Positions 9,871 to 25,110 of a DNA stretch of 64,000 bases are shown here, one piece after another. Source of the DNA: a bacterium (GTDB lineage: Bacteria; SM23-31); assembly GCA_965249485.1 (NCBI GenBank), contig OZ252239.1, positions 3,643,587 through 3,707,586 of the forward strand, in the 5' to 3' direction. The notes beneath the pieces are model-generated. The model was given only the letters and a program-made list of their open reading frames with translations. It was not told where the DNA came from and ran no database searches. Both the position numbers and the translations under genes were made by a program. Each line of letters starts with the position of its first letter. Within the stretch, counting starts at the first letter, position 1.

Positions 9871-9960
9871 TCGAATTCAAGGCAAAAAAAGACCGGTTAA
9901 AAAAGTAATCGTTTAACCGGCTGATTCAAAAGGATTTCAATACTATGAAGAAGAATTGAA

Positions 9961-11253
9961 TTATCCCGGAATAAGATTGAGAATCTCTTTTATCGGCATG
10001 CATAAATCGTTCGCTTCATAAGAACGTTCATGTTCCAATATCGATTCTGCTGTTTTAATCATAGCCGGATAGGCGCTGCGAAGAAGGTGGTTTGCATAGA
10101 TGACTATGTTCGCGCCAGCAGATGATAATTCCGACTCGGTAATAGAATTATACGTTGAAGGAACCGCTACTAACGGGACGCGATTTTCAAACTTCTTGTA
10201 TTCGTCGCAAAATTCGAGAACCTCTTGTGGAGACTTTTCCTTGCTGTGAATCATGATCCCATCCGCACCTGCTTCAATAAATGCGTGAGCCCTTTTAAGA
10301 GCATCCTGCAAGCCGGCTTTTAGAATAAGACTCTCAATACGAGCAATTATCATGAAATCGTTTGTTACCTGGGCACGTTTTCCTTCGGAAATTTTACTCG
10401 AAAAATTATCAATTGAATCTTGCGTTTGTTCAACTTCTGTACCGAACAGTGAATTTCTCTTCAAGCCAATTTTGTCTTCAATAATCACAGCAGAAACTCC
10501 CAATCGTTCCAACGTGCGTACCATGAGGATAAAATGTTCAACATATCCGCCACTGTCTCCGTCATATATGATCGGCTTTGTTGAAACTTCCAATATTTGG
10601 TTCACTACATTTAATCTGCTTGTAAAATCTCCGAACTCAATATCAGCTTTACCTTTTGCGGTTGAATCTGTCAAACTGCTGATCCACATACCATCGAATT
10701 CTTTAATTTTGTCATCTTTTGTGACTTTTGTATGTTCCACTATTAATCCGGTCAGCCCGTTATGTGCTTCTAATATTCTGGTAACCGGTTTTACTTCTAT
10801 CATTCTCCGAAGCTGTCTCATCCTTACTTCTGGTGTTGTACCAATCTCGCGTACAGCTTCCTGAAGTATTTTGGAAGACACACCCTTTGTATAGGATGGC
10901 TCTACCAGTTCTCCACCCCATTCCTTGAGCACTTCAATTACTCGTTCTCTGGTTTTACTCATAAAACCAGTTTTCCAGTCATCGCCATGCACAACATAAT
11001 CTGGCTTCATTTTCCTTAGGTTATCATCATAATCAAAAGTCTCCTGCGGTACAACGTGAGCAACACCTTTGATATTTTCGACAATTATTCTTCGCTGATC
11101 GTATGTCAAAAGAGGAAATCTGTAATGTGAGGCAATCGCTTTATCAGTTAATAAGCCAATCGTAACCTCACCTAACTTTCGAGCTTCCTGTATTATGTTT
11201 AAATGACCATGGTGTAACAAATCAGCACTAATTGCTACATAGACTTTTTTCAA
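9961..11253 (-). CDS. Bifunctional cytidylyltransferase–phosphoenolpyruvate mutase (Fom1/PntC-Ppm-like fusion), copy A, intact
   Basis: 430 aa. N-terminal ~130 aa carry the HxGH nucleotidyltransferase motif ([10 protein letters not shown]). The C-terminal ~290 aa are from the ICL/PEP-mutase family, with the PEP-mutase signature [12 protein letters not shown]. Confidence 0.8.
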
Positions 11254-11539
11254 TGTGAAACTCCAATAATATTAGAATGTCATTGAGACAAATTAAAGAA
11301 CGATTTAATAATACCACATTTTATTATTATTATAAATACGCAATACACTGAACAGAGTTTTCATCCACTGTACATTTCGCATTGTTGTGATTAAAATCAT
11401 GGAAAAAACAGCGGATTAATTCCTGTTAAATTATATAATGGTTTATAGAATATAAGACAAAAAACTATAAAACTGATTATATCACAGGAAAAATACTGTG
11501 ATATTTTTTAGTATTTTGTTTTTGTGTTTATGATTATCT

Positions 11540-11890
11540 TCATTTTATTTGTGCAGTTTTATCGCCCTCACTCAAAAGTATTTTATTCTCTTCTTGGAGA
11601 ACCTTACTAAAATATACACCAAAGATATTTAAAAATAATATTGGCCAGACATAAATATTTTGCTCAACTTTATAGATAGCTATTGTGATAAAAAATCCGA
11701 ACAGTGTAAATTCATAGAAAAGCATAGTATCAAAGACTTTTTTAAGCCAATAACCAATTGGTGTGCCTTTATCTCTAATCCTGGCAAGAGAGCCATCAAG
11801 ACAATCTAAAAAATGTTGTATTTCATTTATAACTCCAGCAATTATAAAACTTATATAGTTTGCCCGGAATATTAGATAAAATATCGTCAA
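11540..11890 (-). pseudogene. CDP-alcohol phosphatidyltransferase-family gene, N-terminally truncated paralog (copy A)
   Basis: 116 aa. Retains the DG(x2)AR(x8)G(x3)D signature (LDCLDGSLARIRDKGTPIGYWL). Lacks the ~70 N-terminal residues present in the 235-aa paralog at 16126–16833, and an upstream in-frame stop confirms the truncation. Confidence 0.5.
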
Positions 11891-12026
11891 AGCAAAAACT
11901 GTCTAAAAATTGTAATCTGATTGGGAGTTATCCGGGAATTTTTCATTAAAAGAGCAACTTTTCTTGCCGATCTTTCAAAAATATCCTTTCTTTCATCAGG
12001 AGAACCAAATATTACCGGAAATCGCA

Positions 12027-13478
12027 TTATTGTTTTTCTCCAATTAATTCAGCAAGTACTACTCTGTCATTATGGTCAAATCCTTTTAGGAGCAATAAAA
12101 TTAATGTAAATAATAAAAGTCCGAATATGATTGTTATATAATAAGAAAAAGACATCCCAAAAATCACAATCAGTATTCCAGAGGATGCCACAATCGGTTT
12201 AATCATATTTTTGAATGCCGTTATAATAAGTAATCTTATATCAGAAATGAATATCCCGGTAATGATAATTGAAATGTACGAAAATACTACTGCTAATGAT
12301 GCTCCAATGATTCCAAACGCTGGAATAAGTAAGATATTTAGTAAAATAAACAAACTCCCGCTTATTAATTCTAATACTAATGGGTACATTTGTTTATCGC
12401 TTGCTATTAAAGTTGAGTTTAAAAATACAGATACAAAAATAAATACAAGTGAAAACATCAATATCTGCGCAGGGATAACGGCCATAATATATTGCTCTTT
12501 AAAAAGGAACACAATTATATTTTCCATATATACGTAAAAATATATCATAATGGGAATTGCAAGTATAGTTAAATATTTTATGGAAAGACCAAAGACATTC
12601 ATAAATACATCACGATTTTCAATGTATTTTTTAGCAAGAACAGGTGCCAATGTAATATTAAGAATAGCAGGGATAACGGTGAATACTGCTGGGATTCTCC
12701 ATGCAACAGAAAAAAGTGCAACCTGATCCGAAGTCATATAAAATTCGATGATCAGAACAGCAACATTTAACTTGATTATATAAAAAACGGCACTTAACAA
12801 AATTGGAAATGATTTCTTGAGGAGATTAAGGAATTCCGTTATATTAATACTGAAGCGGGGCCGTGGAAATAACTTTAAATAGAAAAGAGCAATACATATA
12901 AAACCCGGTAGGTCACAAAGTCCCACAGCCAGAATTAAATAATAAAATGAGCTATTACTTGTAAAAATAATCCATATTGAAGCAAGAAATATCAATCTGC
13001 CAAGAATGTTGAATAAGACTATATACATTATCTTAAAATTAACAACATACATTATTTCCCATATTTTTCTAAATGATTTGATTTTTGCAGAAAATAAAAT
13101 AAAAGGTGTGGCGATTAAGATTAGTCTGGTAGTTTCGGAAGTGTAACCAAACTGAGAATGTAACAAAAGAAATATGCTATAAGAAATGATAATTAGTATG
13201 ATACTGAAAAGTCCAGCAAATGTGAGACAAATACCCATTAATTGTGAGGATAAAGAAGTGTTTCGTGCAATTTCTCGCTGAATAATACTCGTCATACCAA
13301 AATCAGCAAAAACAGCAAATAATGTAAGATAAGCGATAATGAAATTATACTGACCGAATTGATCTTGTGAAAGGAAACGACTCAACCAAATAAATATATA
13401 AAGCTCAATTATTCGTGTAATAATGCTTTCAGAGAGAAAAAGAAGGGAATTTTTTGCTGCAACTCTAACATGAGCCAT
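12027..13478 (-). CDS. Polysaccharide biosynthesis/export protein, MOP-superfamily Wzx-like flippase
   Basis: 483 aa with ~12–14 TM helices. N-terminal region is typical of the PST family. Confidence 0.7.
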   Translation of the reverse strand: MAHVRVAAKNSLLFLSESIITRIIELYIFIWLSRFLSQDQFGQYNFIIAYLTLFAVFADFGMTSIIQREIARNTSLSSQLMGICLTFAGLFSIILIIISYSIFLLLHSQFGYTSETTRLILIATPFILFSAKIKSFRKIWEIMYVVNFKIMYIVLFNILGRLIFLASIWIIFTSNSSFYYLILAVGLCDLPGFICIALFYLKLFPRPRFSINITEFLNLLKKSFPILLSAVFYIIKLNVAVLIIEFYMTSDQVALFSVAWRIPAVFTVIPAILNITLAPVLAKKYIENRDVFMNVFGLSIKYLTILAIPIMIYFYVYMENIIVFLFKEQYIMAVIPAQILMFSLVFIFVSVFLNSTLIASDKQMYPLVLELISGSLFILLNILLIPAFGIIGASLAVVFSYISIIITGIFISDIRLLIITAFKNMIKPIVASSGILIVIFGMSFSYYITIIFGLLLFTLILLLLKGFDHNDRVVLAELIGEKQ

Positions 13479-13598
13479 AATATAAATCTATAAATTTATT
13501 GATTAATATTGACATAATTGTGTTCAGCAATTTGAATTTAGTTAATAATTTGCTATTTCAAGAAATTAGTTTCAAATTATATGAAAAATAATTGTTAG

Positions 13599-14735
13599 TT
13601 ACATTATATCTAATAATAGTGTTTTTATTTTTTTCTTTGTTATTATTCTTGGATTATTCTTCAACCTTTGCGTATTAATGTTCTTAGCAATTTTTTCAAT
13701 GTCATAATTAGAACGTATTCCAAGTTCAGTCAGTTTTGTAGACAATCCGATATTACACATCATTTTTTTTATTTTAATCTTTATATCACTAACCCCGGTA
13801 ATATCCATTAAAGTACTCAGTTCTTTAATAACACTTTTTACATATTCTACGCCTCGAGCATCAATAACATCTTGGGATGACACATTACTATTGTAAATAA
13901 ATATTGGAGTTAAAGTAAGTGCCACTGCATGTCCATGCGGAATATTATAGTATGAGGTCATAGGATAGGAAATAGCATGTAGTGCAGTTGTTTTAGTAAT
14001 ATTGATTGCTTTTCCCGAAAGGTGAGATGCATTTAACATCACTTCAGCGGTATCCCTCGTAGGATTGTTTACCGCGCATTCAATTGTCCCTAAAATCTGT
14101 TTAATTGCTTGTTTAGAATAAATTTTTGATTCATCAGTTGAATGTATACTCCAATATGATTCAATAGCTTGGCAAAGAGCATCCATACCAGAAGCAGCCG
14201 CAACTTGTTTAGGCATATTAACACAAAACTGGGGATCTAATAGGGCAACATCAGGCTGAATACATTCATGCATAATTGAGTATTTTTTATACCCATCATA
14301 TATAACTGCAAAGTGTGTTGATTCACTACCAGAACCCGAAGTAGTTGGTATTGCTATAATAGGAACTTTTTTTTTTATAATCTTTTTATTAGATCGGATA
14401 AAATCTTGCACTCCTAAAGATTGTACAGCAAGCACACTAATCAACTTTGCCATATCTATCACACTACCACCACCGATAGCAACGATTATATCCTGATTAT
14501 CTTTTTTAAAAAGTGTTACTCCTCTTTGCACATCTTCAATTTTTGGATTAATTTCAAAATCAAAAAACTTATGAACGATGTAAGAATTTAATACTTTACT
14601 TACAACTTTTTCAGCACCGCTACTTTTAAATGAATTGTTTCCAGTAACAAGAAAAACATTTTTGCACTTAAAGGATTCAAGTATACTTTTCAAATGTATA
14701 ATACTATTATATCCTGAGATTTCTGTTTGATTCAT
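13599..14735 (-). CDS. Iron-containing (group III) alcohol dehydrogenase; candidate phosphonoacetaldehyde reductase (FomC/PhpC-like)
   Basis: 378 aa. Fe-ADH motifs GGGSVIDMAK and the His-rich metal site (HGHAVA). Located between PEP-mutase copies and the phosphonopyruvate decarboxylase. Confidence 0.7.
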   Translation of the reverse strand: MNQTEISGYNSIIHLKSILESFKCKNVFLVTGNNSFKSSGAEKVVSKVLNSYIVHKFFDFEINPKIEDVQRGVTLFKKDNQDIIVAIGGGSVIDMAKLISVLAVQSLGVQDFIRSNKKIIKKKVPIIAIPTTSGSGSESTHFAVIYDGYKKYSIMHECIQPDVALLDPQFCVNMPKQVAAASGMDALCQAIESYWSIHSTDESKIYSKQAIKQILGTIECAVNNPTRDTAEVMLNASHLSGKAINITKTTALHAISYPMTSYYNIPHGHAVALTLTPIFIYNSNVSSQDVIDARGVEYVKSVIKELSTLMDITGVSDIKIKIKKMMCNIGLSTKLTELGIRSNYDIEKIAKNINTQRLKNNPRIITKKKIKTLLLDIM

Positions 14736-14786
14736 CCGCGCTAACTCTTACATATATTATTAATAATTTAAGGAATTGTATATTAA

Positions 14787-15606
14787 TTAAGCATATAACT
14801 TGAGGAGATCATTAATTGAAATACACTTTTTTTCTGCTTCCAAAGATCGTCCATTAAGAAGAATTGTTTCAGCAGTTTTTTTCATGATTGGATATGCACT
14901 TCTAAGAAGTTGATTTGCATATATAACAATATTCACTCCTAATTCTTTTAATGCAGTTTCTGTTAGATTGTTATATTTTGTAGAAATTGCGACAAGGGGA
15001 ACCCGTTTTTCAATTTGAGAATATTCCTGATAAAATGAGAGGATTTGCTGAGGAGTTTTTTCATTACTGTGGATCATGATTCCATCTGCACCAGCCTCGA
15101 TATAAGCATGTGCTCTTTTCAAAGCACCGTTTAAATCAGATCCGTGAATTAGACTTTCAATTCGACCAATAATCATAAAATCATTTGTGATCTGAGCTTG
15201 TTTCCCTTGAGATATTTTATAATGAAAAACTTTCAATAGAATCTTGAGTTTTTTTAAAGCCAGATTTCATTAATGAATTCTTTTTTAAAACTATTTGGTC
15301 ATCAATTATGACTGCTGTAACACCCATTCGTTCTAAAGTTTTTACTATATGAACAAATTGTTCTGGATGGACACCCCTATCTCCTTCAAAAATTGTCGGT
15401 TTTGTAGACGCTTTTAAAATTTGATTGGTAGTTTCAATTCTTGAAGAAAAATCGACATGCTCAAAATCTACTTTACCTTTTGAAAGACAGACAGTTTGGT
15501 TGCTAATCCAAATTCCATCAAATTCCTTAATAATATTATCAACTGTTACTCTGGTGTTTTCAACGATTAATCCTGAAATGCCGTTATGAGCTTCTAATAT
15601 TCGCAC
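14787..15606 (-). pseudogene. PEP mutase domain remnant (copy B), disrupted by a frameshift; EDK motif changed to DDQ
   Basis: Two overlapping ORFs, 15217–15606 and 14787–15236, in different frames. Together they align end-to-end with the C-terminal PEP-mutase part of copy A. The catalytic-loop sequence reads IIDDQIVLKKNSL where copy A has [13 protein letters not shown]. Confidence 0.6.
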
Positions 15607-15633
15607 AAATTTATTGGTCTGGAGTATTTTCCT

Positions 15634-16077
15634 TTATTTTTTTACTTTAGGGTTTTGTGGGATACCTAACACTCTTATTTTTTCATTCAGCAGTGTCGAG
15701 GATATTCCAGGAGTATATGGTATCTCAACTAATTCCCCATTCCACTCTTTTAAAGTATGTATAACTCGTGCTCTAATTTCTTTCTGTACTCCAGTTTTCC
15801 AATCATCGCCATGGACAACATAGTCGGGTTTCATTTTTCTTATATTCGGAATATAATCAAGCGTTTTCTGGGGTAGAACGTTTATAACTCCTTTGATACT
15901 TTGAATAACTGTTTTTCTTTGTTCATATGACATATAAGGCAATCGTTTGTAACCTGCAATCGCTTCATCAGTCAACAATCCTATTGTTACTTCTCCCAAT
16001 TTTCGAGCATGATTGATAATATTTATATGTCCGGGATGAATGAGATCAGCACTCATTCCAACGTAAACTTTCTTCAT
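15634..16077 (-). CDS. Cytidylyltransferase domain protein (copy B), severed from its PEP-mutase domain by an in-frame TAA
   Basis: 147 aa, ~70% identical to the N-domain of copy A, with the HxGH motif IHPGHINII. The TAA at 15634–15636 is in frame with the downstream mutase remnant. The linker is homologous to the copy-A interdomain linker. Confidence 0.6.
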
Positions 16078-16125
16078 TCGAATTTTCTGTGATTATTGAA
16101 TAATGTGTTTAAATTATATTTATAA

Positions 16126-16833
16126 TTATGTATATCTTTGCTCTTTGAAGTGAAGTACTGTTAAACTTGCATACCTTAACCACTGGATTTGTCTGAAAAC
16201 GGCAATTACTATCATTGCTATTAGAAGAGGATTTATTTTAAGATATGAATAGAGTGGTTCGTAAAATATCATACAAAAATAGATAAACTGTGGGTACCAT
16301 ATAAAGATTTTAAAAATCAATTTGCTGAATTTGCTTCTTTTCTTATCCTGGATTACAATATCTTTTCTACTCCGGTTTTTTAAATTTATATATGCGTCTA
16401 AAAATATTTCTTTAAATAGAAATCCAAAAGTATTAAAAAATAACACTAACCATATTATCGGATTATTTTCGATTTTATAAATTGCTAAGGACAAAAAGAA
16501 TCCAAATAGGCTAAAATCACTAAACAACAATAAATCCACCTTCATTTCCAACCAATATCCAAATTTAGTTTCCATTTTATTTAGTCTTGCCAGTTGTCCA
16601 TCAACGCAATCTAAAAGATAGTGGAATTCACAAAGTATTCCGGCAATTATAAAATATTGATATTCTGCTTTATAAAGCAAAAAATACAGTACTATTGATA
16701 GTGGTTGTCTGAATAATGTTACATGATTAGGCTTTATCTTAGTATTTTTTAAATAATAAGCAATTTTTTTTCCGCATTTGTTAAAGACACTGACTCTGTC
16801 TGCAGGATTTCCAAAAATTGTTGGGAACTTCAT
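16126..16833 (-). CDS. CDP-alcohol phosphatidyltransferase-family membrane protein (full length, copy B)
   Basis: 235 aa. Signature LDCVDGQLARLNKMETKFGYWLE. Multiple TM helices. Confidence 0.65.
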   Translation of the reverse strand: MKFPTIFGNPADRVSVFNKCGKKIAYYLKNTKIKPNHVTLFRQPLSIVLYFLLYKAEYQYFIIAGILCEFHYLLDCVDGQLARLNKMETKFGYWLEMKVDLLLFSDFSLFGFFLSLAIYKIENNPIIWLVLFFNTFGFLFKEIFLDAYINLKNRSRKDIVIQDKKRSKFSKLIFKIFIWYPQFIYFCMIFYEPLYSYLKINPLLIAMIVIAVFRQIQWLRYASLTVLHFKEQRYT

Positions 16834-16953
16834 ATTTTCCTCAAAAATATCTATCGCATTAATTACTCAGACAATCTTGCAGAATACCAGAATCCTTGAT
16901 GACTCACAAAACTCGCAAATATTATTAAGATAAATCCCCAAAAAAAACTTAAT

Positions 16954-17514
16954 TTATATTAAAGAGTTTCTTAGTTGATCTTTTATTTTCTCTGGGGTAT
17001 GACTAACGCGTGCTATTCCCTTGATATTTCCGGATTCCACATTAATCTGCACACAGATCGGACCGTTATTACTTATGATATTTTGAAAATATCTTTCTAA
17101 CTCACTTAATTCTGAAATCGTATTTACTGATACATATCCGGAGCTTTTTGCTATATCCGCAAGGTTAATATCTGAAGTAATGGTTTTCTGCCCGCCGGTC
17201 GAGCTGTACACCTGATTGTCAAAAATTATATGGTAATAGTTTTTAAGTTGCAAAAATCCGGCTAGTGGGAAATTCCCAAGATTCATGAGTGCACTACCGT
17301 CCCCATCAAATACAAAAACCGGAATATCCGGTTTATTAAGAGCAATGCCTATTCCTATAGATGAAGCATACCCCATAGATCCGATCATATAAAAATTGTT
17401 TGCCCTGTCATTGAGCGTAAACACTTCTCGGGAAATCATTCCTGTTGTACATATGATCGGTGCATTGTCAGGTAACACTTTAAAAATAACTTGTAACGCT
17501 TCTATTTTATTCAT
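16954..17514 (-). CDS. Phosphonopyruvate (or sulfopyruvate) decarboxylase, beta subunit (TPP-binding C-terminal domain)
   Basis: 186 aa. TPP-binding GDG…N motif (VFVFDGDGSALMNLGNF). Immediately downstream of the alpha subunit. Confidence 0.7.
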   Translation of the reverse strand: MNKIEALQVIFKVLPDNAPIICTTGMISREVFTLNDRANNFYMIGSMGYASSIGIGIALNKPDIPVFVFDGDGSALMNLGNFPLAGFLQLKNYYHIIFDNQVYSSTGGQKTITSDINLADIAKSSGYVSVNTISELSELERYFQNIISNNGPICVQINVESGNIKGIARVSHTPEKIKDQLRNSLI

Positions 17515-17537
17515 GTCATTTTTAAATCAAATAATAT

Positions 17538-18026
17538 TCAGTCAATTATATTATCTTTTAAGATAGCAGCCACGGGAACCTGTTTTTCGTCCATAACTGC
17601 TATAAGCTCCGAAAAAACAGATTCAATATTATCCTTTTCGAATATTTTATAGGGTATCTTCATTAATTTCAAAAAATTTAACATCTCAGCGCCCATAATG
17701 ATGTGTTCAGGTGCGTCCTTCCCTTGATAGCCTCTCCAGGAAATGATCATGAATACTGGAATTTTGTATATTAAATTGAGAGAAGTAAGTCCATTAACCA
17801 CATTGCCAAGTCCAGAGTTTTGGATTAGTATTCCAGACCTTCTACCCGAAAAATAACCGCCCGTAGCGATTCCCAACGCCCCATCTTCTCTTGTTGCAGG
17901 GATATATGTAAAATCGGAATCGTTCTCAATTTCAATTAAAATTTTCTTGAATATCGAGCACGGAACACCGGAAAGAAATGTTAATCCGTATTTTTTTAAG
18001 TGTGAAGAAAATTCATTTGAATTCAT
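17538..18026 (-). CDS. Phosphonopyruvate (or sulfopyruvate) decarboxylase, alpha subunit (TPP-enzyme N-terminal domain)
   Basis: 162 aa of ComD/Ppd-alpha-like sequence (ATREDGALGIATGGYFSG…ILIQNSGLGN). Clusters with the PEP mutase. Confidence 0.7.
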   Translation of the reverse strand: MNSNEFSSHLKKYGLTFLSGVPCSIFKKILIEIENDSDFTYIPATREDGALGIATGGYFSGRRSGILIQNSGLGNVVNGLTSLNLIYKIPVFMIISWRGYQGKDAPEHIIMGAEMLNFLKLMKIPYKIFEKDNIESVFSELIAVMDEKQVPVAAILKDNIID

Positions 18027-18213
18027 CGCTTTATATAATAATTAATATTGATCCTATAATATAGCGTAGGTAATGAATGGTGTTAAGTGTAAAAAATAAT
18101 TGAATCAATATCAAGGATATATCACGTTCTGACCAGACATTCTGAAACAAAATCTATTTTTTTCAACATAATATTCGGGAAAGACAAGGAGAGGCAAGTA
18201 CAAGTGCTATATT

Positions 18214-19161
18214 CTAGTGTGAAGAGAATTCTTTTATGCACTGTTTGTTAAGATCAATGAAGTCGATTTCTGATAAATTCCACTTGTCATTGTAAAGACT
18301 TTCCGTAATATGATCTGGCCTGCTTGCACCATATATTGCAACATCTATATTGGAATTCCTCAATACCCATGCAACAGACAATTGCACAATCGTTAAATTA
18401 CGTTTTTGTGCAAAAATTTTTATTTTGTCTGTAATTTTAAGGTATTGTCTGAATTTTTCACCTTTAAATTCAGGTTGGTTTTGACGGCTATCGCCATTTT
18501 CAAACTTTGTTCTTGGTGTAAATTTTCCAGATAGTAACCCACGAAATAATGGGCTATATGCAAGAACTCCAATGTTTTTTTCAGCACAGAGAGGTAGTAC
18601 CTCTTCTTCAATTTCTCTTTGAAACAGATTGTATCGCACTTGAACAGTATCGAGACATCCAAGGGATATGTACTGTTTTATGTGGGATACGTCTACATTT
18701 GAAGCTCCAACATAACGTATTTTACCTGACTGTAAAAGATGCTCGAGCGCATTAACTGTATCAGAAATAGGGGTTGAATTATCCGGCCAGTGAGTTTGAT
18801 ATATGTCGATATAATCTGTATTCAATCGTTTGAGACTTTCCTCTACACTTTTCACAATATTAGTATAACTTAGATCGAATTGAGCTTTGCCTTCCTGTGT
18901 TCTTTTAACTCCTACTTTTGTAGCAATTATTACGTTTTTTCTGTTCATACTTAATGCTTCTGCTAATATGCTTTCTGAACGCCAAAATCCGTACACGTTT
19001 GCAGTATCAAAACAGTTTATTCCTATATCTAAAGCCTTATGAACTGTTGCTATAGAATCAGCTTTACTCGGAGCACCTGCGTATTCTACACCAAAATTTC
19101 CGCATCCTAATGCAATTCTTGAAACTTTTATATTAGTTGAACCTAACTGGACAAAAATCAT
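18214..19161 (-). CDS. Aldo/keto reductase family oxidoreductase
   Basis: 315 aa. AKR (α/β)8 fold signatures (GCGNFG…; IDIYQTHWPD). Confidence 0.75.
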   Translation of the reverse strand: MIFVQLGSTNIKVSRIALGCGNFGVEYAGAPSKADSIATVHKALDIGINCFDTANVYGFWRSESILAEALSMNRKNVIIATKVGVKRTQEGKAQFDLSYTNIVKSVEESLKRLNTDYIDIYQTHWPDNSTPISDTVNALEHLLQSGKIRYVGASNVDVSHIKQYISLGCLDTVQVRYNLFQREIEEEVLPLCAEKNIGVLAYSPLFRGLLSGKFTPRTKFENGDSRQNQPEFKGEKFRQYLKITDKIKIFAQKRNLTIVQLSVAWVLRNSNIDVAIYGASRPDHITESLYNDKWNLSEIDFIDLNKQCIKEFSSH

Positions 19162-19274
19162 AATATAAATTGTTTAGTAACAAATAAATCTATTATAAAA
19201 TTAATTTTATAATAGATTTATTGAATGAGTTAACTTCTTGTTGCAAAGTAGTATGGAGGGATATTATTGAGTAA

Positions 19275-19967
19275 TTATTTCATTCTACACCGTGTAGCAA
19301 TCATCTCAAAGAATATTTTTGAGATAATACCTATGCCCCCAAATTTTGATTCTCCTAATTCCCTCTGAAGATAATTTATTCCTATTTGTTTTATTACAAA
19401 TCCTTTTCTGTGCGCTTTGATGAGGCTTTCAGCATCATGAAATCCCCACTTTGACTCAAGTTTAATATCTTCAAATACTTTTGATGAATATAACTTATAA
19501 GAAAAATTTATATCCCGAAGTTTTAAATTAAATAATGATCTAACGAGCCAATTGAATACACCAGAATAAACTTTACGTTTCATACCCTCATTCCGATTTA
19601 AGCGAAATGCTGATACGATATCACATGAATTGATAATATCAAACGCTTTGAAAATATCTTGAAAATCGAATGGTTCATCAGCATCAAACAAAAAGAAGTA
19701 CTCCATCGATGCAGTGGTAATGCCAAGGGATACCGCACTTCCCATTCCTTCTCTTTGCTCTTGATGCACCACTATGACATTGTGAATTTCCCTTTCAAGA
19801 TTGTCTACAATAACTGGTGTATTGTCGGTACTGCCACTTTCAATTATAACAATCTCAAAATTTTCAATACTGTCCTGCAGAATTCTTGCTATTTTTCTGA
19901 CAACTTTATCAACATACTGTTCTTCATTATAGACTGGGAGAATAATAGACACGCTTGATTTTATCAT
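19275..19967 (-). CDS. GT2 glycosyltransferase, polyprenyl-phosphate sugar synthase-like (DPM1/ArnC-like, soluble form)
   Basis: 230 aa. N-terminal ILPVYNEE, and DxD-type motifs (FDAD). Confidence 0.65.
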   Translation of the reverse strand: MIKSSVSIILPVYNEEQYVDKVVRKIARILQDSIENFEIVIIESGSTDNTPVIVDNLEREIHNVIVVHQEQREGMGSAVSLGITTASMEYFFLFDADEPFDFQDIFKAFDIINSCDIVSAFRLNRNEGMKRKVYSGVFNWLVRSLFNLKLRDINFSYKLYSSKVFEDIKLESKWGFHDAESLIKAHRKGFVIKQIGINYLQRELGESKFGGIGIISKIFFEMIATRCRMK

Positions 19968-20038
19968 ATAAGTTCCGAAAAAATTTCCAAGAAGTTTTTC
20001 TGTATTTCAGCATGTGAATACCATTAAAGAATAAAGTA

Positions 20039-20785
20039 TTATTTACTAGAAATAATGTCAGACACACTCTCTTTATTTTTCCGGAGGATTTTATTCATTA
20101 ATGAATCGATATCTTCAACTGCTTGTTGATAATCATCCTGACGTCCTATATCCATCCAATAATCTTTACTTTCATAGGCCATAATTTTTTGTCCGCCATC
20201 TTTCATTCTTAAGAGTAAGTCTGGAAAATCCAATCGTTCACCTGCTTTGATAAAATCCAACGCTCTTGGTTCAAAATATCTTATCCCCATTCCGACTTTA
20301 TAATCAAGGATTGGCTTTTCTTTGTGCCCTTGCACTATATTATCTGAATCAACATCAATAACTCCATAATTAATATTAACTGAACGATTATGAATTGCTA
20401 ATGTCAAATCAGATTTATTACCTCTATGAAATTTTAACATTTTAACGTAATCAAGCGTTGTTAAAATATCGCCATTCATTACAAGAAATGTTTTGTTGAG
20501 ACCTCGAATTTCCTTTATCGGCCCTATAGTACCAAGAGGAATTTCTTCATCAATATATGTGATCTTCAAACCATTTATTACGCGCTTATTTCCAAAATAG
20601 GCTTTAATTATTTCAGACAAGTATCCAACCGCAAGTATTGCCTCTGTAAATCCATAAAGTGAAAGCTGCTGTAATACTATTTCTAAGATTGGAATATCTC
20701 CTAAAGGCATCAGAGGTTTTGGAAGAATTGTAGTGTATGGATAGAGACGAGTCCCACGCCCACCGGCAAGAATGACTGCTTTCAT
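20039..20785 (-). CDS. Sugar-1-phosphate nucleotidyltransferase (RfbF / glucose-1-P cytidylyltransferase-like)
   Basis: 248 aa. N-terminal MKAVILAGGRGTRLYPYTTILPKPLMP. Confidence 0.7.
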   Translation of the reverse strand: MKAVILAGGRGTRLYPYTTILPKPLMPLGDIPILEIVLQQLSLYGFTEAILAVGYLSEIIKAYFGNKRVINGLKITYIDEEIPLGTIGPIKEIRGLNKTFLVMNGDILTTLDYVKMLKFHRGNKSDLTLAIHNRSVNINYGVIDVDSDNIVQGHKEKPILDYKVGMGIRYFEPRALDFIKAGERLDFPDLLLRMKDGGQKIMAYESKDYWMDIGRQDDYQQAVEDIDSLMNKILRKNKESVSDIISSK

Positions 20786-20911
20786 ATTGCGTTAGTATCC
20801 TTTTATGGCTCACTATCCGAAACTACATGTTATAGAATTAATCGAATAGTATCATAACATTCTTTAAATTAAATCTAATAACATTTATAAAATATTCTAA
20901 TATTTACACAT

Positions 20912-21757
20912 TTACAAAATCTCTAGATGAGATTTGAGTACATCCGATGTCCTCTCCCATTTGAAATTATCCATCAGAGTTAGAAACATCTCCCGAACAT
21001 TAGGTAAATAAAAGACAAATGCAGGATTCTTAATACAGAGTTTCCTTTTGGCAATCTGAGCCTTTTGTGTAGGTGGAAATATTTGCCAATTATGTATGAA
21101 CATGTTTACAAACTGCTGAGTATCCCGAGAGCGCTCAATAAAAAATGATATAAACTTATAACCCAGTGAGTACCACAAACTGCTTCCAAATGGAATCCCA
21201 TACGTTAATAATCTTAGGTTCATATTTGAAGGGTATTCCAACCTCCCATTAAAATTTCTATAGGTAAAGAGAGAGACCGGACATTCTAATACACCATCTT
21301 TAAAAAATAAATTATTAGTTTCCCCATAAACTGATAAGCTTGAGGTAATTCCGAATTGTTTTAAATATTTATAGCCTTCTTCACAGAATACAATTGATGG
21401 TGCTTGAAACGTTGTTGGACGATATTGCTTAATAAATTCGGATGATTTATGTAACTCTGATAAAAGTGTTTCATGATTGTAAATATGTTTATGAGAGTTT
21501 GTGTGATACCCAATTTCATGTCCTTCTTTAATCAAACTTTCGATTAAGTCGGGATACCATTCTGCTATTTCAGAAACAACATACCAGGTTAATTTGATAG
21601 AACGTTTCGATAATTCGTTAAGGAGATATTCTGATTCTCTAACTATATCTTCATTATCAATTTTTTTTCTCTCGACAGAATCCAGATTTTGAAATTCCGG
21701 AATAAGGTGAACCCAGGATTCAAGATCGACTGACATTATATTACGATCAGTAGACAT
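20912..21757 (-). CDS. Polysaccharide deacetylase-family protein (NodB-like/DUF3473-like)
   Basis: 281 aa with His-containing motifs (GHEIGYHTNSHKH). Confidence 0.45.
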   Translation of the reverse strand: MSTDRNIMSVDLESWVHLIPEFQNLDSVERKKIDNEDIVRESEYLLNELSKRSIKLTWYVVSEIAEWYPDLIESLIKEGHEIGYHTNSHKHIYNHETLLSELHKSSEFIKQYRPTTFQAPSIVFCEEGYKYLKQFGITSSLSVYGETNNLFFKDGVLECPVSLFTYRNFNGRLEYPSNMNLRLLTYGIPFGSSLWYSLGYKFISFFIERSRDTQQFVNMFIHNWQIFPPTQKAQIAKRKLCIKNPAFVFYLPNVREMFLTLMDNFKWERTSDVLKSHLEIL

Positions 21758-21937
21758 GTCTTAAGTGTGTTAATTTGACAATCTGGATTAGCCAGATAGG
21801 CTTTATTATATCGACAAAAAGTCCGGTTTTCTCTACATGATTTATTTTTAATCCGCCTTCATTTGCATACTTTTAAATTTTATGGTTTGTAAATAAATTA
21901 ATTGAATTGCCTTGCAATAAGTGATAGAATTTAAAAT

Positions 21938-22273
21938 TCAAGCCCCAAAAAGACAACCTGATACTACTAATACTATAATACCATTTTCAGATAGATGGTT
22001 TATTATATTTTTAAATACATCTGAAAGAATTGTGCAAAATTCCAAAGATCCAGCATATAAGATTTTATTAAATTTTTTATTTAAACTAAAATTTTGCAAA
22101 TCAGCAACTTCTGCATTGATACCGCGAGATTGTGTATACTTCACCATCTCATGTGACAAGTCAATTCCATAAACTTCTGCACCATATTCTTTGAGTATTA
22201 ACGAATTATAGCCTGATCCACAACCGCGGTTTAATATGTTATCCCCTTCAATCGGATCAAGTAAGCGCAGCAA
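21938..22273 (-). pseudogene. Class I SAM-dependent methyltransferase fragment
   Basis: Only 111 aa. Motif I (NRGCGSGYNS) lies ~13 aa from the start, which is too short for a complete MTase. Flanked by ~180 and ~390 bp of AT-rich noncoding DNA. Confidence 0.35.
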
Positions 22274-22667
22274 AATCTTTTGTTCTGCAGCTTTTAATCT
22301 TCCAAAAAATCATTTAGCCAATTTTTGTTGATAATTATTTGCTAGTTTATCATAATACTCCATTGAGCTCATATTATTTTCTGTTGGTCACAGATCCAAG
22401 TTGTATTTTACATGAACAATAAATATACTTAAAATTAACCGGAATTGGTGAATTATTTTAATTGAATATTTATTTTTTATCCAAAGTTTCCAAAGTTTGA
22501 TAAATTTAAGAAATCTAATAGATGAAAATCTATCTTTTATATAATTGATGCAATTTAAATATGTAAATAAGCAAATATTTATACTAATTAAACCTTTTTA
22601 GCGTTATTTTATTAATCTAAAAATTGATCATTATAATTTCAAAATAAGGGATTAAGAAAAATTATTT

Positions 22668-23405
22668 ATGGAGAGTAAAGTGGCAAATAAATCACTAGTT
22701 GTAAAAATTTTATACTTTGCAAGAAATCTGAGATCTCGAAAATTGTTTAGTGTTTTAGAAACATATTGTAAAGGTAATGTCCTTGATGTAGGTGGGGGAG
22801 CATTCTTCTTAACCGCACAAAAAAAGAAATATCAAATCAAATCTTGGACAACATTAGAATACTATAAGGAAGAAAAAATTGAGACTGAAGACGAAAGATT
22901 CAGGTTCGTTCAAAGTGATGGATGCAAATTACCATTAAAGAGTGATCAATTTGAAACAGTATTGAATATTCAAGTTCTTGAGCATGTATTTGATGCAGCA
23001 GAAATGGTATACGAAATCGCTCGTGTGCTCAAACCCAATTGCTATGGAATATTTCTAATTCCTCAGACATCAACCCTGCATTGGGCTCCAAATCATTACT
23101 ATAATTTTACCCGATATTGGATACAAGAGGTTATGCAAAGAGCCAATTTAGAAATAATCGAACTTAAACCTCTTGGAGGAATCTGGACCTCAATGGCCTC
23201 TCATTTAGTCTATTTTTTTCTTCAAAGTATACGATTCCATGGAATGTCTTCGAAAGAAAATGAAAGAAAATTATTCTTTTATCTTTTATATCCAATTATG
23301 GTATTATATGCTATAATAAACATCCCAATTTGTATGATCCTGGGGTTAGGCGATTTAACAGAGGAGCCTAACAATCATCTGGTTATAGTCAGAAAAACAG
23401 TGTAG
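22668..23405 (+). CDS. Class I SAM-dependent methyltransferase with C-terminal membrane anchor
   Basis: 245 aa. Motif I VLDVGGGAFF. Two C-terminal hydrophobic helices. Confidence 0.6.
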   Translation: MESKVANKSLVVKILYFARNLRSRKLFSVLETYCKGNVLDVGGGAFFLTAQKKKYQIKSWTTLEYYKEEKIETEDERFRFVQSDGCKLPLKSDQFETVLNIQVLEHVFDAAEMVYEIARVLKPNCYGIFLIPQTSTLHWAPNHYYNFTRYWIQEVMQRANLEIIELKPLGGIWTSMASHLVYFFLQSIRFHGMSSKENERKLFFYLLYPIMVLYAIINIPICMILGLGDLTEEPNNHLVIVRKTV

Positions 23406-23416
23406 ATAAATATAAC

Positions 23417-25063
23417 TTACTGATTTTTCAAATTCAAATATACTTTATACCCTGCGTAATAGTGGTAATCACTAATCTTCTTACCATACTCAAATGAATG
23501 ACCTGTTTTAAATGCAAGGTAATAATTGTCTTTTAAATATTTATTTAAGTCTTCTCCAGGTAATTCAAATAGCCCTATAACTATTACCCGAGGAGATTCT
23601 TTGATTAGAGTCGGCATAAGATGATTATGAAAAATCTCTTCCGCTTTATCACCACTATTATAAAGTTCTCTCCAATATATATAATCAGAACCAAAAGCAT
23701 TGGGATTATCAAGAATTAAATTGAATATATCAGTATCAAAACCGGCTGTTACGATTTTATCAGTATGGTTTAAATTGTGTCGTAAAAAATCATGCGTCTT
23801 TTCCAGTGCTTCATATATTGTTTGAGATACTTTAATTCCATTTAGAGCTGGAATTGTCAGTGTTTGTTCTCTTATTTCTGGTTTAAAAATATACAAAGAG
23901 GGAATGATATAGAAGCTGAGCAATCCGATAATTAATACACTTCGAATAATAATTTTACTTTTTTTTGCAGATTCAAGATAAAACAACTTATTAACAAAAT
24001 AAAACGCCAATAGGATAGTCGTAGGTATGATTAATCCCATCTCACCGTGTCCAATGCGATTCCCTGAATAATAAAACTGCATAAAAGTCATAGGAGAAAA
24101 AACTGCTAAGGTCAGTAGGGCAAAAGCGCATGGTTTATCTCTATGTCTCAAAACATAAAAAAAAGTTAATATTCCCATTAGAAGAGGAAGGTAAAAACAC
24201 AACGAATAATATGTGTCTTTTAAAGCAAAAAATAGTGATAAGAATGATTGGGAATTAAATATGGCAATAAAATAACTGAAAAAATTAGGCCAGGAAAATG
24301 AAGCTGCATTAGATCCAAAATACGTTAAAAAGAACAGAAAATTTTTTTGCAAAATTTCCAGAGTATTTGAATAGATTATCTCGGAATATACAGGTATAAT
24401 TATGATGCATGTCCCCAACAAGAAAAGTGATATTGTTATTTTTAAGCTCCATGTATATAATTCTTTATTTAAATACCTATATATTATTAACGATAAGCAT
24501 AATGAAAGCCACATACTTATACCAATAGGAATTGGTTTCTGTAGAATTGACAAGCCTATTGCTACTCCTGAAAAAAACACCCATTTATATGTCAGTTTTT
24601 CTCTGAACTTCAGAAGAAAAAAAATCCCAAAAACTCCTCCAAAAAGTGTGAAGATATTGCTATAGCTATATATGGGTTGGAAAATCATTAAAAACGATAA
24701 TAATGCTGCCATCACGCTCCACCATAAAGATAAAAACCTGCGGCTAATTAAAAAAGATACTACTATGCAAATTGTCAATAAAAATGTCGAAGCATAGCGT
24801 ACTACAAGTAAACTAACTCCAAATATGTTGAATATAAGTGAATAAAAATATGGTCCTATTGGACCATAATGATGCCAAATGTCTTGATAAAGAGTGTAGC
24901 CCTGAAATACTCTCTTGTATGCCATTACAATTATCCCTTCATCACCAATAATTAAATCAAAGGAAATTGTCGGTATCTGACGAACAAGAAAGAGTGTCAC
25001 TAAAGTTAAGAGCGCAAACCATTCTTTTGTTATTAATTGTTTGAATTTAGAATGAAAACTCAC
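23417..25063 (-). CDS. Polytopic membrane protein, GT-C fold glycosyltransferase-like (ArnT/PMT-like)
   Basis: 548 aa with ≥10 TM helices. Has a DE-containing first extracytoplasmic loop (IIGDEGIIVMAYK) and a C-terminal soluble domain. Confidence 0.45.
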   Translation of the reverse strand: MSFHSKFKQLITKEWFALLTLVTLFLVRQIPTISFDLIIGDEGIIVMAYKRVFQGYTLYQDIWHHYGPIGPYFYSLIFNIFGVSLLVVRYASTFLLTICIVVSFLISRRFLSLWWSVMAALLSFLMIFQPIYSYSNIFTLFGGVFGIFFLLKFREKLTYKWVFFSGVAIGLSILQKPIPIGISMWLSLCLSLIIYRYLNKELYTWSLKITISLFLLGTCIIIIPVYSEIIYSNTLEILQKNFLFFLTYFGSNAASFSWPNFFSYFIAIFNSQSFLSLFFALKDTYYSLCFYLPLLMGILTFFYVLRHRDKPCAFALLTLAVFSPMTFMQFYYSGNRIGHGEMGLIIPTTILLAFYFVNKLFYLESAKKSKIIIRSVLIIGLLSFYIIPSLYIFKPEIREQTLTIPALNGIKVSQTIYEALEKTHDFLRHNLNHTDKIVTAGFDTDIFNLILDNPNAFGSDYIYWRELYNSGDKAEEIFHNHLMPTLIKESPRVIVIGLFELPGEDLNKYLKDNYYLAFKTGHSFEYGKKISDYHYYAGYKVYLNLKNQ

Positions 25064-25110
25064 AAAATATCCTGTTATATTTAATAACTACAAAAATAAA
25101 ATGTTTTTTA

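Follow-up and report, generated by a model that had tools for sequence, protein, structure and literature searches.

A 64-kb stretch of bacterial DNA, which was analysed as a whole and is called the window here, carries two copies of one gene pair on its minus strand. The pair consists of a 235-aa CDP-alcohol phosphotransferase and a Fom1-type fusion of a cytidylyltransferase and a PEP mutase (Ppm), and each copy (A and B) is damaged in a different place. Do the two copies complement each other, or is one module being lost? The original prediction had left both outcomes standing, and we found that complementation fits better, since the functions missing from each unit are intact in the other. 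We favor, with a probability of roughly 0.6, a reading in which two divergent phosphonate cassettes within one glycan island have degenerated in a complementary way, which would leave one composite pathway.

Organization of the two copies

The coordinates of the features are listed in Table 1. As predicted, the two units lie about 4.7 kb apart and are separated by genes that Pfam identifies as a Wzx-like flippase and an Fe-dependent alcohol dehydrogenase (Fe-ADH). The offset between the direct repeats is constant, at 4,824 nt for the fusion genes and 4,805 nt for the transferases.

Table 1. Features of the two cassettes and the surrounding segment, in positions of the window.
Feature	Coordinates	Strand	Evidence
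Strain-specific variable segment of the glycan-biosynthesis island, with both cassettes inside	9936..25471	.	Homology to sibling loci interrupted
fusA, Fom1-type bifunctional gene, intact (copy A)	9961..11253	-	N-terminal PF01467 cytidylyltransferase, C-terminal PEP mutase (PF13714)
trA, full-length pseudogene of the 235-aa CDP-alcohol phosphotransferase (copy A)	11305..12027	-	tblastn and three-frame translation
116-aa ORF, middle frame-segment of trA, no separate gene	11540..11890	-	PF01066, profile positions 18-92 of 152
Wzx-like polysaccharide flippase	12027..13478	-	PF01943, PF13440; weak NCBIfam Wzx_EPS match
Fe-ADH	13599..14735	-	PF00465, PF25137; single copy in the window
Linker and PEP mutase remnant, pseudogene (copy B)	14787..15633	-	tblastn of fusA; PF13714 N-half in ORF 15217-15606, C-half in ORF 14787-15236
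CyTase-B, intact 147-aa stand-alone cytidylyltransferase ORF (copy B)	15634..16077	-	PF01467, E = 3e-16; TAA at the former interdomain linker
trB, intact 235-aa CDP-alcohol phosphotransferase (copy B)	16126..16833	-	PF01066, 43.3 bits (cut-off 22)
Ppd (phosphonopyruvate decarboxylase), two ORFs	16954..18026 (alpha 17538-18026, beta 16954-17514)	-	PF02776, PF02775; single copy in the window

The paralogy of the copies is far above chance. Comparison by blastn gave 65.8% identity over 1,218 nt for the fusion genes (E = 3e-81) and 66.7% over 249 nt for the transferases. At the protein level, the fusions are 59% identical overall, 60% in the Ppm domain and 64% in the cytidylyltransferase domain, where about 70% had been claimed; the transferases are 39% identical. 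We detected no gene-conversion tracts between A and B, the best local DNA identity being 73-77%, which agrees with the view that they are old paralogues or xenologues. Copy B had also been described as the more AT-rich of the two. This is the case for the fusion gene (GC 32.9% in B vs 39.9% in A; GC3 0.19-0.26 vs 0.35) and not for the transferases, both of which are AT-rich with nearly equal GC (28.1% and 28.9%).

Both cassettes are located in a variable segment of the island. Homology to sibling loci (~90% nucleotide identity) ends at 9935 and resumes with 80% identity at 25472-27525, and the GC3 of the segment is 0.19-0.35 vs 0.40-0.50 for the backbone. No ppm gene was found within 10 kb in six sibling loci (~90% DNA identity); phosphonate genes are absent from the site, which holds GT4, methyltransferase, flippase and CDP-alcohol transferase genes instead.

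The gene order in the window, Ppd-transferase-fusion-ADH, is unusual. Ppd directly follows the fusion gene in 56/61 related genome loci, and in 23/62 the fusion adjoins an Fe-ADH 32-52% identical to the one described here, mostly after the fusion and Ppd. These associations support a functional linkage of the fusion, Ppd and Fe-ADH.

Origin of the two copies

The shared gene order and orientation of two units 4.8 kb apart would be expected from a tandem duplication in situ followed by subfunctionalization, and the Ppm-domain neighbors of copy B do include copy A (rank 9/196) and P0002, a close homologue of the copy-A fusion (rank 3/196). In the constrained cytidylyltransferase domain, however, A is only the 185th of 196 neighbors of B, and proteins of unrelated phyla are nearer to B, at 78% identity, than A is, at 64%. 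Only 1 of the 12 derived states uniting A with P0002 is present in B, the GC3 values of the fusion genes differ, and a second fusion gene within 10 kb is found in none of the 61 other genomes. We therefore consider duplication in situ unlikely as the origin, and the units are probably xenologues that were acquired independently. Copy B sits on a long branch, which weakens all of the evidence on duplication versus xenology.

The transferase of copy A is a full-length pseudogene

The copy-A transferase was originally thought to be an N-terminally truncated remnant of 116 aa. We found instead that trA can be read from an ATG at 12027, which overlaps the flippase stop (TAATG), to a stop at 11305, over roughly 238 codons in three reading frames. 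The reconstructed protein is collinear with intact homologues (47% identity to P0201, 39% to TrB). The 116-aa ORF is indeed a piece of the broken gene, but it is a central segment and not the product of an N-terminal truncation. When 1.84 billion cluster representatives were searched exhaustively, it came back as a singleton representative (P0206). Its close matches are full-length relatives of ~205-270 aa, apart from shorter ones of 92 and 144 aa that look like fragments of full-length transferases. Thus, it is not a conserved short member of the family, as might have been argued.

Four frameshifts interrupt trA, in the T5 run at 11898-11894, at ~11545-11560, and in the T6 runs at 11464-11459 and 11408-11403, and a TGG→TGA change at 11484-11482 puts a stop in place of a Trp codon. 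The third acidic position of the catalytic motif is Lys, where 51/52 family members have D or E. A relative-rate test against P0201 gave 47 unique changes in trA vs 21 (p = 0.0016).

The counterpart of unit A is found intact on a metagenomic contig (L062), as a block in the order [flippase end]-[transferase]-[fusion]. The gene fragment lying upstream of the contig's intact transferase shares 42% identity with the C-terminus of the flippase in the window, and the contig's fusion protein (P0002) is 81% identical to FusA. This intact block and its similarity to FusA indicate that unit A used to be a functional cassette.

Copy B has lost the Ppm domain and kept the cytidylyltransferase

The fusion gene of copy B was correctly described as broken, but the damage is confined to the linker and the Ppm domain. 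It contains a single in-frame TAA, which lies in the linker (15636-15634), and a single +1 frameshift (T5 run 15229-15225). Substitutions are also abundant: 23/110 near-invariant Ppm columns and 6/7 linker columns are changed, and the EDKxxxxxNS motif is lost, now reading DDQxxxxxNS (DDQIVLKKNS). In a Tajima relative-rate test of the Ppm domain, B had 60 unique changes vs 18 in A (p = 2e-6), and its best match in the homologue set (60.6% over this domain) falls below the lowest of 1,500 random homologue pairs (63.3%).

In contrast, only 1/50 near-invariant columns is changed in CyTase-B (Fisher p = 0.0014 vs the Ppm domain), and the relative-rate test is not significant (15 unique changes in B vs 19 in A). 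CyTase-B is on average 70% identical to its homologues, where a typical pair is 72% identical. Its residues 4-137 align to the whole crystallized Fom1 domain (5X3D), and identity to the Fom1 cytidylyltransferase domain is 66% for B and 63% for A. As judged from these substitution patterns, the cytidylyltransferase domain of copy B is still under constraint and the Ppm domain is the unit of loss. Because CyTase-B is unrelaxed while the Ppm domain once fused to it decayed heavily, selection must have acted on the copy-B cassette long after redundancy arose. The expected reciprocal decay is therefore found, with the transferase lost in A, and the linker and Ppm in B.

Intact genes of the pathway

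The fusion enzyme of copy A is intact, in line with the original prediction. fusA starts with TTG, preceded by GGAG. FusA scores 398.5 bits against TIGR02320 PEP_mutase (cut-off 319.55), its cytidylyltransferase domain matches the Fom1 structure 5X3D (E = 6.8e-53), and EDKxxxxxNS, the Ppm-defining motif (Rice et al. 2019, PMC6697681), is intact. The Ppm domain deviates at 4/110 near-invariant columns. Two unique changes, P203A and T216V, fall in columns that are invariant in 195/195 homologues. By our own mapping onto the mussel Ppm numbering, P203A adjoins the presumed catalytic Asp. Given these substitutions, Ppm activity of FusA is not guaranteed.

The copy-B transferase is full length, as had been stated. 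TrB carries the family motif (D75-x2-D78-G79-x2-A82-R83-x8-G92-x3-E96-x3-D100), matches AF2299 (PDB 4O6M, E = 2e-15) and is 51% identical to P0201. All of its scores against NCBIfam equivalogs are far under the cut-offs. Its subfamily is rare, with 5 matches at E <= 1e-30 among 1.84 billion representatives. A strict tie to phosphonates does not hold for the subfamily, because a homologue from it in sibling genomes (28-30% identity) has no ppm gene within 10 kb.

The two Ppd ORFs match TIGR03297 at positions 1-156 (124.7 bits) and 172-358 (196.8 bits). They lie in different frames with a 23-nt gap, and the split may reflect a natural form with two subunits, or it may be a further lesion. The Fe-ADH is a probable phosphonoacetaldehyde reductase making 2-hydroxyethylphosphonate; since its NCBIfam matches are all below the cut-offs, this substrate is assigned from gene context.

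A candidate composite pathway

In the window, at least one intact gene is available for each step: Ppm (A), the split Ppd, Fe-ADH, cytidylyltransferase (A and B), transferase (B) and the flippase. Complementation is the best reading because every step keeps an intact gene and what one unit has lost is intact in the other. The Ppm domain of FusA would convert PEP to phosphonopyruvate, the split Ppd would convert this to phosphonoacetaldehyde, and Fe-ADH would reduce the aldehyde to 2-hydroxyethylphosphonate. CyTase-B, the N-terminal domain of FusA, or both would then use CTP to form CMP-hydroxyethylphosphonate. TrB, as a membrane enzyme, would attach the phosphonyl group, with release of CMP, at a hydroxyl on a lipid or lipid-linked glycan, and the Wzx-like flippase would export the product. 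The redundant parts, namely the transferase of A and the linker and Ppm domain of B, have become pseudogenes, and the linker stop codon has in effect split the fused gene so that the N-terminal domain alone was kept. The substrates, the acceptor and the activity of this composite pathway are all read from sequence and should be taken as putative.

Alternative explanations for the damage

The phosphonate pathway as a whole may instead have fallen into disuse, the remaining intact ORFs being those not yet hit and their complementarity a coincidence. At least three more genes in or beside the island are disrupted (a methyltransferase at 21938-22420, an epimerase at 29583-30523 and DUF7790 at 7497-8619), so the whole locus may be eroding. 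The two changes at strictly invariant Ppm positions of FusA and the sibling species that have no phosphonate genes at this locus point the same way. Against this, a non-redundant copy is retained at each required step, CyTase-B is unrelaxed beside its heavily decayed former partner, the Ppm domain of FusA deviates little and scores above the equivalog cut-off, and trB, Fe-ADH, the flippase and both Ppd ORFs are full length. We regard such erosion as rather improbable, less so than any explanation considered below.

Assembly error is a more serious alternative than originally assumed. If long-read homopolymer or consensus errors produced the lesions, both units would really be intact and there would be no reciprocal decay. 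Each of the five frameshifts falls in an A/T run of 4-6 nt. The siblings are MAGs assembled from long reads (contigs named 'ctg..._13x-34x_c/l'), among which the degree of gene fragmentation varies, and the window genome is probably from this series too. DUF7790, GT4, YfhO, CDP-alcohol transferase and flippase genes are fragmented in some of these assemblies and intact in others, and one run differs in length (T7/T6) among them. Single frameshifts are therefore weak evidence. The substitution evidence is independent of them and counters this alternative: both stop codons arose by base substitution and not by indels, copy-B Ppm has lost its motif and many near-invariant residues, trA has Lys at an acidic catalytic position, and both show an excess of unique changes. 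The frameshifts are also clustered. They affect 4/29 A/T runs in trA vs 0/420 in 16 intact neighboring island genes (p = 1.4e-5), there are none in 17.2 kb of equally AT-rich neighboring genes, and at least four in trA remain unexpected even when the 7 frameshifts of the island are all counted together as errors (Poisson p = 7e-4). Hence, an artefact is very improbable.

Phase variation, in which the frameshifts in T5-T6 runs of surface-glycan genes would switch reversibly between two phosphonate decorations, is hardly credible, since trA would need four independent frame corrections plus reversion of its stop and its Lys, copy-B Ppm is missing catalytic-motif residues whatever the frame, the tracts are short, and equally long runs occur in intact neighbors.

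Comparison with known systems

Complementary degeneration of two cassettes remains our preferred reading, and its parts resemble several known systems. Like Fom1 of Streptomyces wedmorensis fosfomycin biosynthesis, FusA joins an N-terminal PF01467 cytidylyltransferase to a C-terminal EDKxxxxxNS Ppm, and the substrate of Fom1, hydroxyethylphosphonate, could be supplied by the Fe-ADH in the cluster (Fom1 activity as given in PMC6697681, citing Cho et al. 2017). The CMP adduct of fosfomycin synthesis is a transient one, according to the title of Cho et al. 2017 as cited in PMC6697681; here it would presumably be the donor for a transfer reaction. The setting also differs: instead of an antibiotic cluster, the genes lie in an island for cell-surface glycans that includes a flippase, glycosyltransferases and a CDP-alcohol phosphotransferase, and a stop codon divides the copy-B fusion. 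Among Ppm proteins, 23.6% are PF01467 fusions, and clusters with one Ppm-fused and one separate nucleotidyltransferase have already been described (PMC6697681; Li et al. 2022 inventory, PMC8942020).

The window also resembles the phosphonyl-tailoring (Pnt) cell-surface clusters, with a Ppm-nucleotidyltransferase fusion, an adjacent Ppd, and transferases and glycan or lipid genes nearby. The PntC enzymes characterized there use aminoethylphosphonate and belong to the LicC/PF12804 type, and LicD-like transferases are the ones discussed (PMC6697681; PMC8942020). The locus here differs in its Fom1/PF01467-type cytidylyltransferase, the lack of an aminotransferase, and its rare transferase subfamily.

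TrB has the features of CDP-alcohol phosphotransferases (PF01066, AF2299), being a small multi-helix membrane protein with the motif D-x2-DG-x2-AR-x8-G-x3-[D/E]-x3-D. This family includes inositol-phosphate and phosphatidyl transferases. TrB differs in having Glu as the third acidic residue and in its presumed donor, a CMP-phosphonate instead of a CDP-alcohol.

As in the duplication-degeneration-complementation idea, redundant units have each lost a different component, and therefore both loci must be retained. The losses here differ in being whole genes or domains in an operon-like cluster rather than regulatory subfunctions, one of them turns a fused gene into a single-domain gene, and the units are probably xenologues. 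Taken together, the locus is a tidy but ordinary example of redundant genes decaying, in which one working set is probably left.

Anatomy of the two phosphonate units

We identified two copies of a unit that pairs a CDP-alcohol phosphotransferase gene with a gene fusing a Fom1-type cytidylyltransferase to a C-terminal PEP mutase (Ppm) domain, and both blastn-level homology and constant-offset repeats agree on this duplication. Unit A consists of trA (transferase) and fusA (fusion, protein FusA), and unit B of trB (protein TrB) and fusB, the latter divided into the ORF CyTase-B and a Ppm remnant. All ORFs named in the original prediction are present where it placed them on the minus strand, and its observation was essentially right apart from some points, the anatomy of the broken genes among them, which are corrected here.

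The fusion copies share 65.8% DNA identity over 1,218 nt (E = 3e-81), and the transferase copies 66.7% over 249 nt. The repeat finder returned constant offsets of 4,824 nt for the fusion and 4,805 nt for the transferase. Since no stretch exceeds the best local DNA identity of 73-77%, there has been no recent gene conversion between the copies. A repeat search for a gene-conversion tract between them, or for a repeat marking a recombination joint, found neither.

Features of the two units and of neighbouring genes, in window positions
Feature	Coordinates	Strand	Description
DUF7790 gene	7497-8619	-	247-aa and 144-aa ORFs
YpdA-family gene	8755-9870	-	flanks the island
fusA	9961-11253	-	PF01467 and PF13714 (Pfam)
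trA	11305-12027	-	start at 12027, stop at 11305
116-aa ORF of trA	11540-11890	-	PF01066 (Pfam)
trA frameshifts	11898-11894; about 11545-11560; 11464-11459; 11408-11403		T5 run (first), T6 runs (third and fourth)
trA nonsense codon	11484-11482		TGA for conserved Trp codon
Wzx-type flippase	12027-13478	-	between the units (Pfam)
Fe-dependent alcohol dehydrogenase (Fe-ADH)	13599-14735	-	between the units (Pfam)
Copy-B Ppm pieces	15217-15606 and 14787-15236	-	N- and C-terminal halves of PF13714 (Pfam)
fusB frameshift	15229-15225		+1, T5 run; only frameshift
CyTase-B	15634-16077	-	PF01467 alone (Pfam)
fusB stop	15636-15634		TAA in interdomain linker; only in-frame stop
trB	16126-16833	-	PF01066 (Pfam)
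Phosphonopyruvate decarboxylase (Ppd)	16954-18026	-	alpha ORF (162 aa) and beta ORF (186 aa) in different frames, 23-nt gap
Palindrome	19183-19222		20 + 20 nt, no spacer
Class-I SAM methyltransferase gene	21938-22420	-	TGA and frameshift
NAD-dependent epimerase/dehydratase gene	29583-30523	-	frameshift at ~29960-30000

Copy A keeps the fusion and has lost the transferase

The fusA gene is intact. [quoted passage not shown] Its N-terminal domain matched the crystallised Fom1 cytidylyltransferase domain (5X3D) with E = 6.8e-53 and PF01467 with 48.8 bits, above the gathering score as in copy B, and the HxGH nucleotide-binding motif reads HHGH. The best matches of the fusion protein are spread across many phyla. 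Only 4 of 110 near-invariant Ppm columns are altered. Two changes, P203A and T216V, are unique to FusA and fall at columns invariant in 195/195 homologues. Two others in the cytidylyltransferase domain, Y43H and K44Y (His-Tyr for Tyr-Lys at positions 97-98% conserved), are shared with its nearest relative, the fusion protein P0002 of the metagenomic contig L062. The changes at residues 43-44, 203 and 216 may reflect altered specificity or partial relaxation.

The copy-A transferase had been described as an N-terminally truncated remnant. Instead, we found that trA is recognisable at full length, its start codon at 12027 overlapping the stop of the flippase gene (TAATG). One frame preserves the first 44 codons, the 116-aa ORF lies in another, and the C-terminal third is distributed over three more segments; the reconstructed product is collinear with intact 235-aa homologues over the whole length. 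The third acidic residue of the family motif, D or E in 51/52 family members, is Lys in trA, a change independent of any indel. Because of this Lys, four frameshifts and one TGA, trA does not hold the family motif in an uninterrupted full-length frame. With trB as the outgroup, trA accumulated 47 unique amino-acid changes against 21 in P0201, the intact transferase of L062 (p = 0.0016).

The 116-aa ORF spans just positions 18-92 of the 152 in the PF01066 profile; when 1.84 billion cluster representatives were searched exhaustively, it came out as a singleton, P0206. Its close matches are full-length relatives of about 205-270 aa, together with shorter ones of 92 and 144 aa that look like fragments of full-length transferases. 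The ORF being a singleton with full-length relatives, the possibility that it is a conserved short family member fails.

Copy B keeps the transferase and sheds the Ppm domain

The trB gene is intact. TrB carries the motif residues D75, D78, G79, A82, R83, G92, E96 and D100 (pattern D-x2-D-G-x2-A-R-x8-G-x3-D-x3-D), with Glu at the third acidic position, where the 52 subfamily members have Glu in 29 cases and Asp in 22. It scored 43.3 bits against PF01066 (cut-off 22) and matches the AF2299 structure.

The claim that the copy-B fusion gene is broken stands for the linker stop, the frameshift and the decay of Ppm, whereas the cytidylyltransferase ORF is intact. This 147-aa ORF upstream of the TAA covers the whole region aligning to the crystallised Fom1 domain (residues 4-137); CyTase-B scored 60.3 bits against PF01467, reads HPGH at the HxGH motif and is 66% identical to Fom1. 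The Ppm region, in contrast, has no intact frame and reads DDQIVLKKNS, the EDK motif being destroyed by E259D and K261Q. In the Pfam scan, its fragments matched the two halves of PF13714 with 54.7 and 91.2 bits.

We compared the domains by aligning both copies with 195 homologues. Saturation of synonymous sites at 66% DNA identity led us to rely on relative-rate and conserved-column tests and not on dN/dS. The copy-B cytidylyltransferase domain (1-135) is on average 70% identical to the homologues (72% for a typical pair), with 1/50 near-invariant columns changed and no significant rate difference (unique changes, 19 in A and 15 in B). In the linker (136-155), identity to the homologues is 19%, 6/7 columns are changed, and unique changes number 2 in A and 10 in B (p = 0.02). 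In the Ppm domain (156-430), mean identity is 57%, 23/110 columns are changed, and unique changes number 18 in A and 60 in B (p = 2e-6); even the best copy-B match, at 60.6%, lies below the lowest identity (63.3%) in a random sample of 1,500 homologue pairs. The contrast between the cytidylyltransferase and Ppm domains inside copy B is significant (Fisher p = 0.0014), indicating that the loss concerns the Ppm domain and not the whole gene. The copy-B cytidylyltransferase has remained subject to purifying selection for most or all of the time during which its attached Ppm decayed.

A bolder reading, judged at a probability of about 0.45, is that a Fom1-type fusion is undergoing fission. The linker stop would have freed a cytidylyltransferase that is still selected and works with the neighbouring transferase, while a second fusion, acquired independently and with its own transferase partner dead, would have taken over the Ppm role. 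If so, two xenologous cassettes degenerated in a complementary way at the level of domains. A C-terminal domain is free to be lost in this manner, but a frameshift in the N-domain of copy A would abolish the needed Ppm as well, which may explain why FusA stayed a complete fusion. The two cytidylyltransferases might differ in substrate preference, given Y43H/K44Y in the A lineage.

Genomic setting and origin of the units

Both units lie in a low-GC glycan-biosynthesis island (~9.9-33.5 kb) that encodes glycosyltransferases, methyltransferases, a nucleotidyltransferase, a deacetylase, and YfhO- and PMT-like membrane proteins. In sibling loci of related genomes (L063-L069), DNA homology of ~90% ends at 9935, 25 nt past the fusA stop, and resumes at 25472-27525 with 80%; the YfhO-like gene at the right edge is just 80% identical to the siblings. 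There, ~6.8 kb replaces the 15.5-kb segment 9,936-25,471, which is a hypervariable glycan locus. The sibling set includes a GT4 glycosyltransferase, a methyltransferase, an opposite-strand flippase and, directly upstream of a ypdA-like gene, a 235-aa CDP-alcohol transferase. This transferase (L065 9072-9779, L063 8119-8823, L069 8223-8927) belongs to the same rare subfamily and is 28-30% identical to trA, trB and P0201. No ppm was found within 10 kb of the sibling transferases. This genome is therefore the only one among the sampled relatives to have the phosphonate genes, and the subfamily is not strictly coupled to them.

The island-flanking gene encodes a YpdA-family putative bacillithiol-disulfide reductase (321.6 bits, cut-off 339.9), which hints at a bacillithiol-using lineage. 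The siblings annotate it as 345 aa, so the start of its listed 371-aa ORF is probably placed 26 codons too far upstream. A perfect 40-nt palindrome (AATAAATCTATTATAAAATT/AATTTTATAATAGATTTATT) is located between the aldo/keto reductase and GT2 genes. Promoter and terminator scans gave chance-level results, and there were no tRNA or Rfam matches within the window.

An intact counterpart of unit A was found on L062 (2.4 kb), which carries the C-terminus of a flippase (42%), P0201, and a fusion 81% identical to FusA. P0201 (235 aa) is 47% identical to reconstructed trA and 51% to trB. The copy-B fusion had no close relative in our searches (best match 64%). Its cytidylyltransferase domain is up to 78% identical to proteins of unrelated phyla and 64% to copy A, which ranks 185th of 196 among its neighbours, and only 1/12 derived states uniting A with P0002 occurs in B. 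GC3 is 0.35 in fusA against 0.19-0.26 in fusB, the window backbone having 0.40-0.50. Two fusion genes within 10 kb of each other were found in 0/61 other genomes. We weakly favour two independently acquired cassettes (xenologues) over duplication in situ; the preference is weak, since copy B sits on a long branch that obscures the signal.

The transferase subfamily is rare: at E <= 1e-30, only 5 matches occur among 1.84 billion representatives. With TrB as query, a word-indexed search gave P0201 as the sole relative, and the family was revealed by an exhaustive HMMER search. Metagenome scans with the transferase alignment and with the degenerate A-lineage peptide pattern HYR[FL]PLLTY[DE]QR returned nothing.

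Predicted phosphonate pathway

Fom1 is a hydroxyethylphosphonate cytidylyltransferase fused to Ppm (PMC6697681). With Fom1 as the model, the FusA Ppm domain is predicted to convert PEP to phosphonopyruvate, which Ppd would decarboxylate to phosphonoacetaldehyde and Fe-ADH would reduce to 2-hydroxyethylphosphonate. CyTase-B, the FusA N-domain, or both would then form CMP-hydroxyethylphosphonate. TrB is predicted to move the phosphonyl group onto a hydroxyl of a lipid or lipid-linked glycan, releasing CMP, and the Wzx-like flippase would export the product. This is the most likely route from PEP to an exported phosphonate; we infer its substrates, acceptor and activity, while the gene content and the pattern of constraint were established in this analysis.

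In related genomes, the fusion is directly followed by Ppd at 56/61 loci and adjoined by Fe-ADH at 23/62; the window has one Fe-ADH and one Ppd, the latter as two ORFs. These ORFs matched positions 1-156 (124.7 bits) and 172-358 (196.8 bits) of TIGR03297, each below the cut-off of 312.5 and their sum above it. They also resemble the alpha and beta subunits of sulfopyruvate decarboxylase, below cut-off. L001, the single locus checked for comparison, has both the alpha and the beta match in one frame, consistent with one ORF. The split Ppd may be a natural two-subunit form, like sulfopyruvate decarboxylase ComDE, or another lesion.

The original prediction offered two alternatives, that the two loci complement each other or that one module is being lost, and the first is now the better supported. 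The main rival, loss of the whole pathway, is unlikely; the caveats that bear on the pathway are P203A/T216V in FusA, Y43H/K44Y in the A/P0002 lineage, the Ppd divided over two frames, and other disrupted genes in the island.

Are the lesions real?

Whether the lesions are real is a weightier question than the original prediction could know. Backbone proteins of the window have relatives at least 90% identical on contigs of 3.4-3.8 Mb, circular or linear, with names of the form 'ctg..._13x-34x_c/l', and the window genome is probably from the same assembly series, so a single frameshift is weak evidence. Across the sibling assemblies, the genes for DUF7790, the GT4 glycosyltransferase, the YfhO-like protein, the CDP-alcohol transferase and the flippase are broken in some and intact in others, one difference being a T7/T6 run length. 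Such variable breakage is the mark either of indel errors in long reads or of true indel polymorphism within homopolymer runs.

However, both stop codons are base substitutions, and the conserved-site and relative-rate results are independent of indels. Shifted A/T runs also number 4/29 in trA against 0/420 in 16 intact, equally AT-rich neighbour genes (p = 1.4e-5); even if all seven island frameshifts are taken as random errors, at least four falling in trA has p = 7e-4. That both units are really intact and only misassembled is very improbable. Phase variation was rejected, since no long single tract restores the frame by length alone, trA having four separate shifts and a nonsense codon, and since the copy-B Ppm lacks its catalytic residues in any frame.

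Other genes are also interrupted. A 1-nt insertion splits the DUF7790 gene, whose orthologue is intact (376 aa) in L063 and broken elsewhere or similarly in L064, L065, L067 and L069, including the T7/T6 run; either the gene is hit recurrently or these are long-read indel errors. The methyltransferase gene, another island pseudogene, has an in-frame TGA near the N-terminus and a frameshift near the C-terminus. The epimerase/dehydratase frameshift leaves ORFs of 174 aa (profile 1-166) and 125 aa (188-240).

Relation to known clusters and implications

The locus is a cell-surface phosphonate cluster of a known kind, the Fom1-type or phosphonyl-tailoring kind. Clusters that combine a fused with a separate nucleotidyltransferase have been described before (PMC6697681; PMC8942020). 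The gene order here is unusual (Ppd-transferase-fusion-ADH). Two further features are unusual: the presumed attaching enzyme belongs to a rare subfamily of small CDP-alcohol phosphotransferases, and the two cassettes degenerated in a complementary manner, one by shedding just its C-terminal domain. It is a neat evolutionary vignette that does not overturn current understanding, would not surprise a specialist and is not a new kind of system.

For annotation, the locus calls for caution, as pieces of pseudogenes, namely the 116-aa 'transferase' and both 'PEP mutase' fragments, nevertheless score above the Pfam threshold. The rare 235-aa CDP-alcohol phosphotransferases are candidates for the attachment of CMP-activated phosphonates, which has so far been poorly characterised. 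Taken together, the locus illustrates concretely the reshuffling of fused phosphonate enzymes and their partners: where gene transfer into a hypervariable surface-glycan locus creates redundancy, this is resolved when whole genes or single domains are lost, and the C-terminal domain of a fusion can go while the N-terminal domain stays functional.
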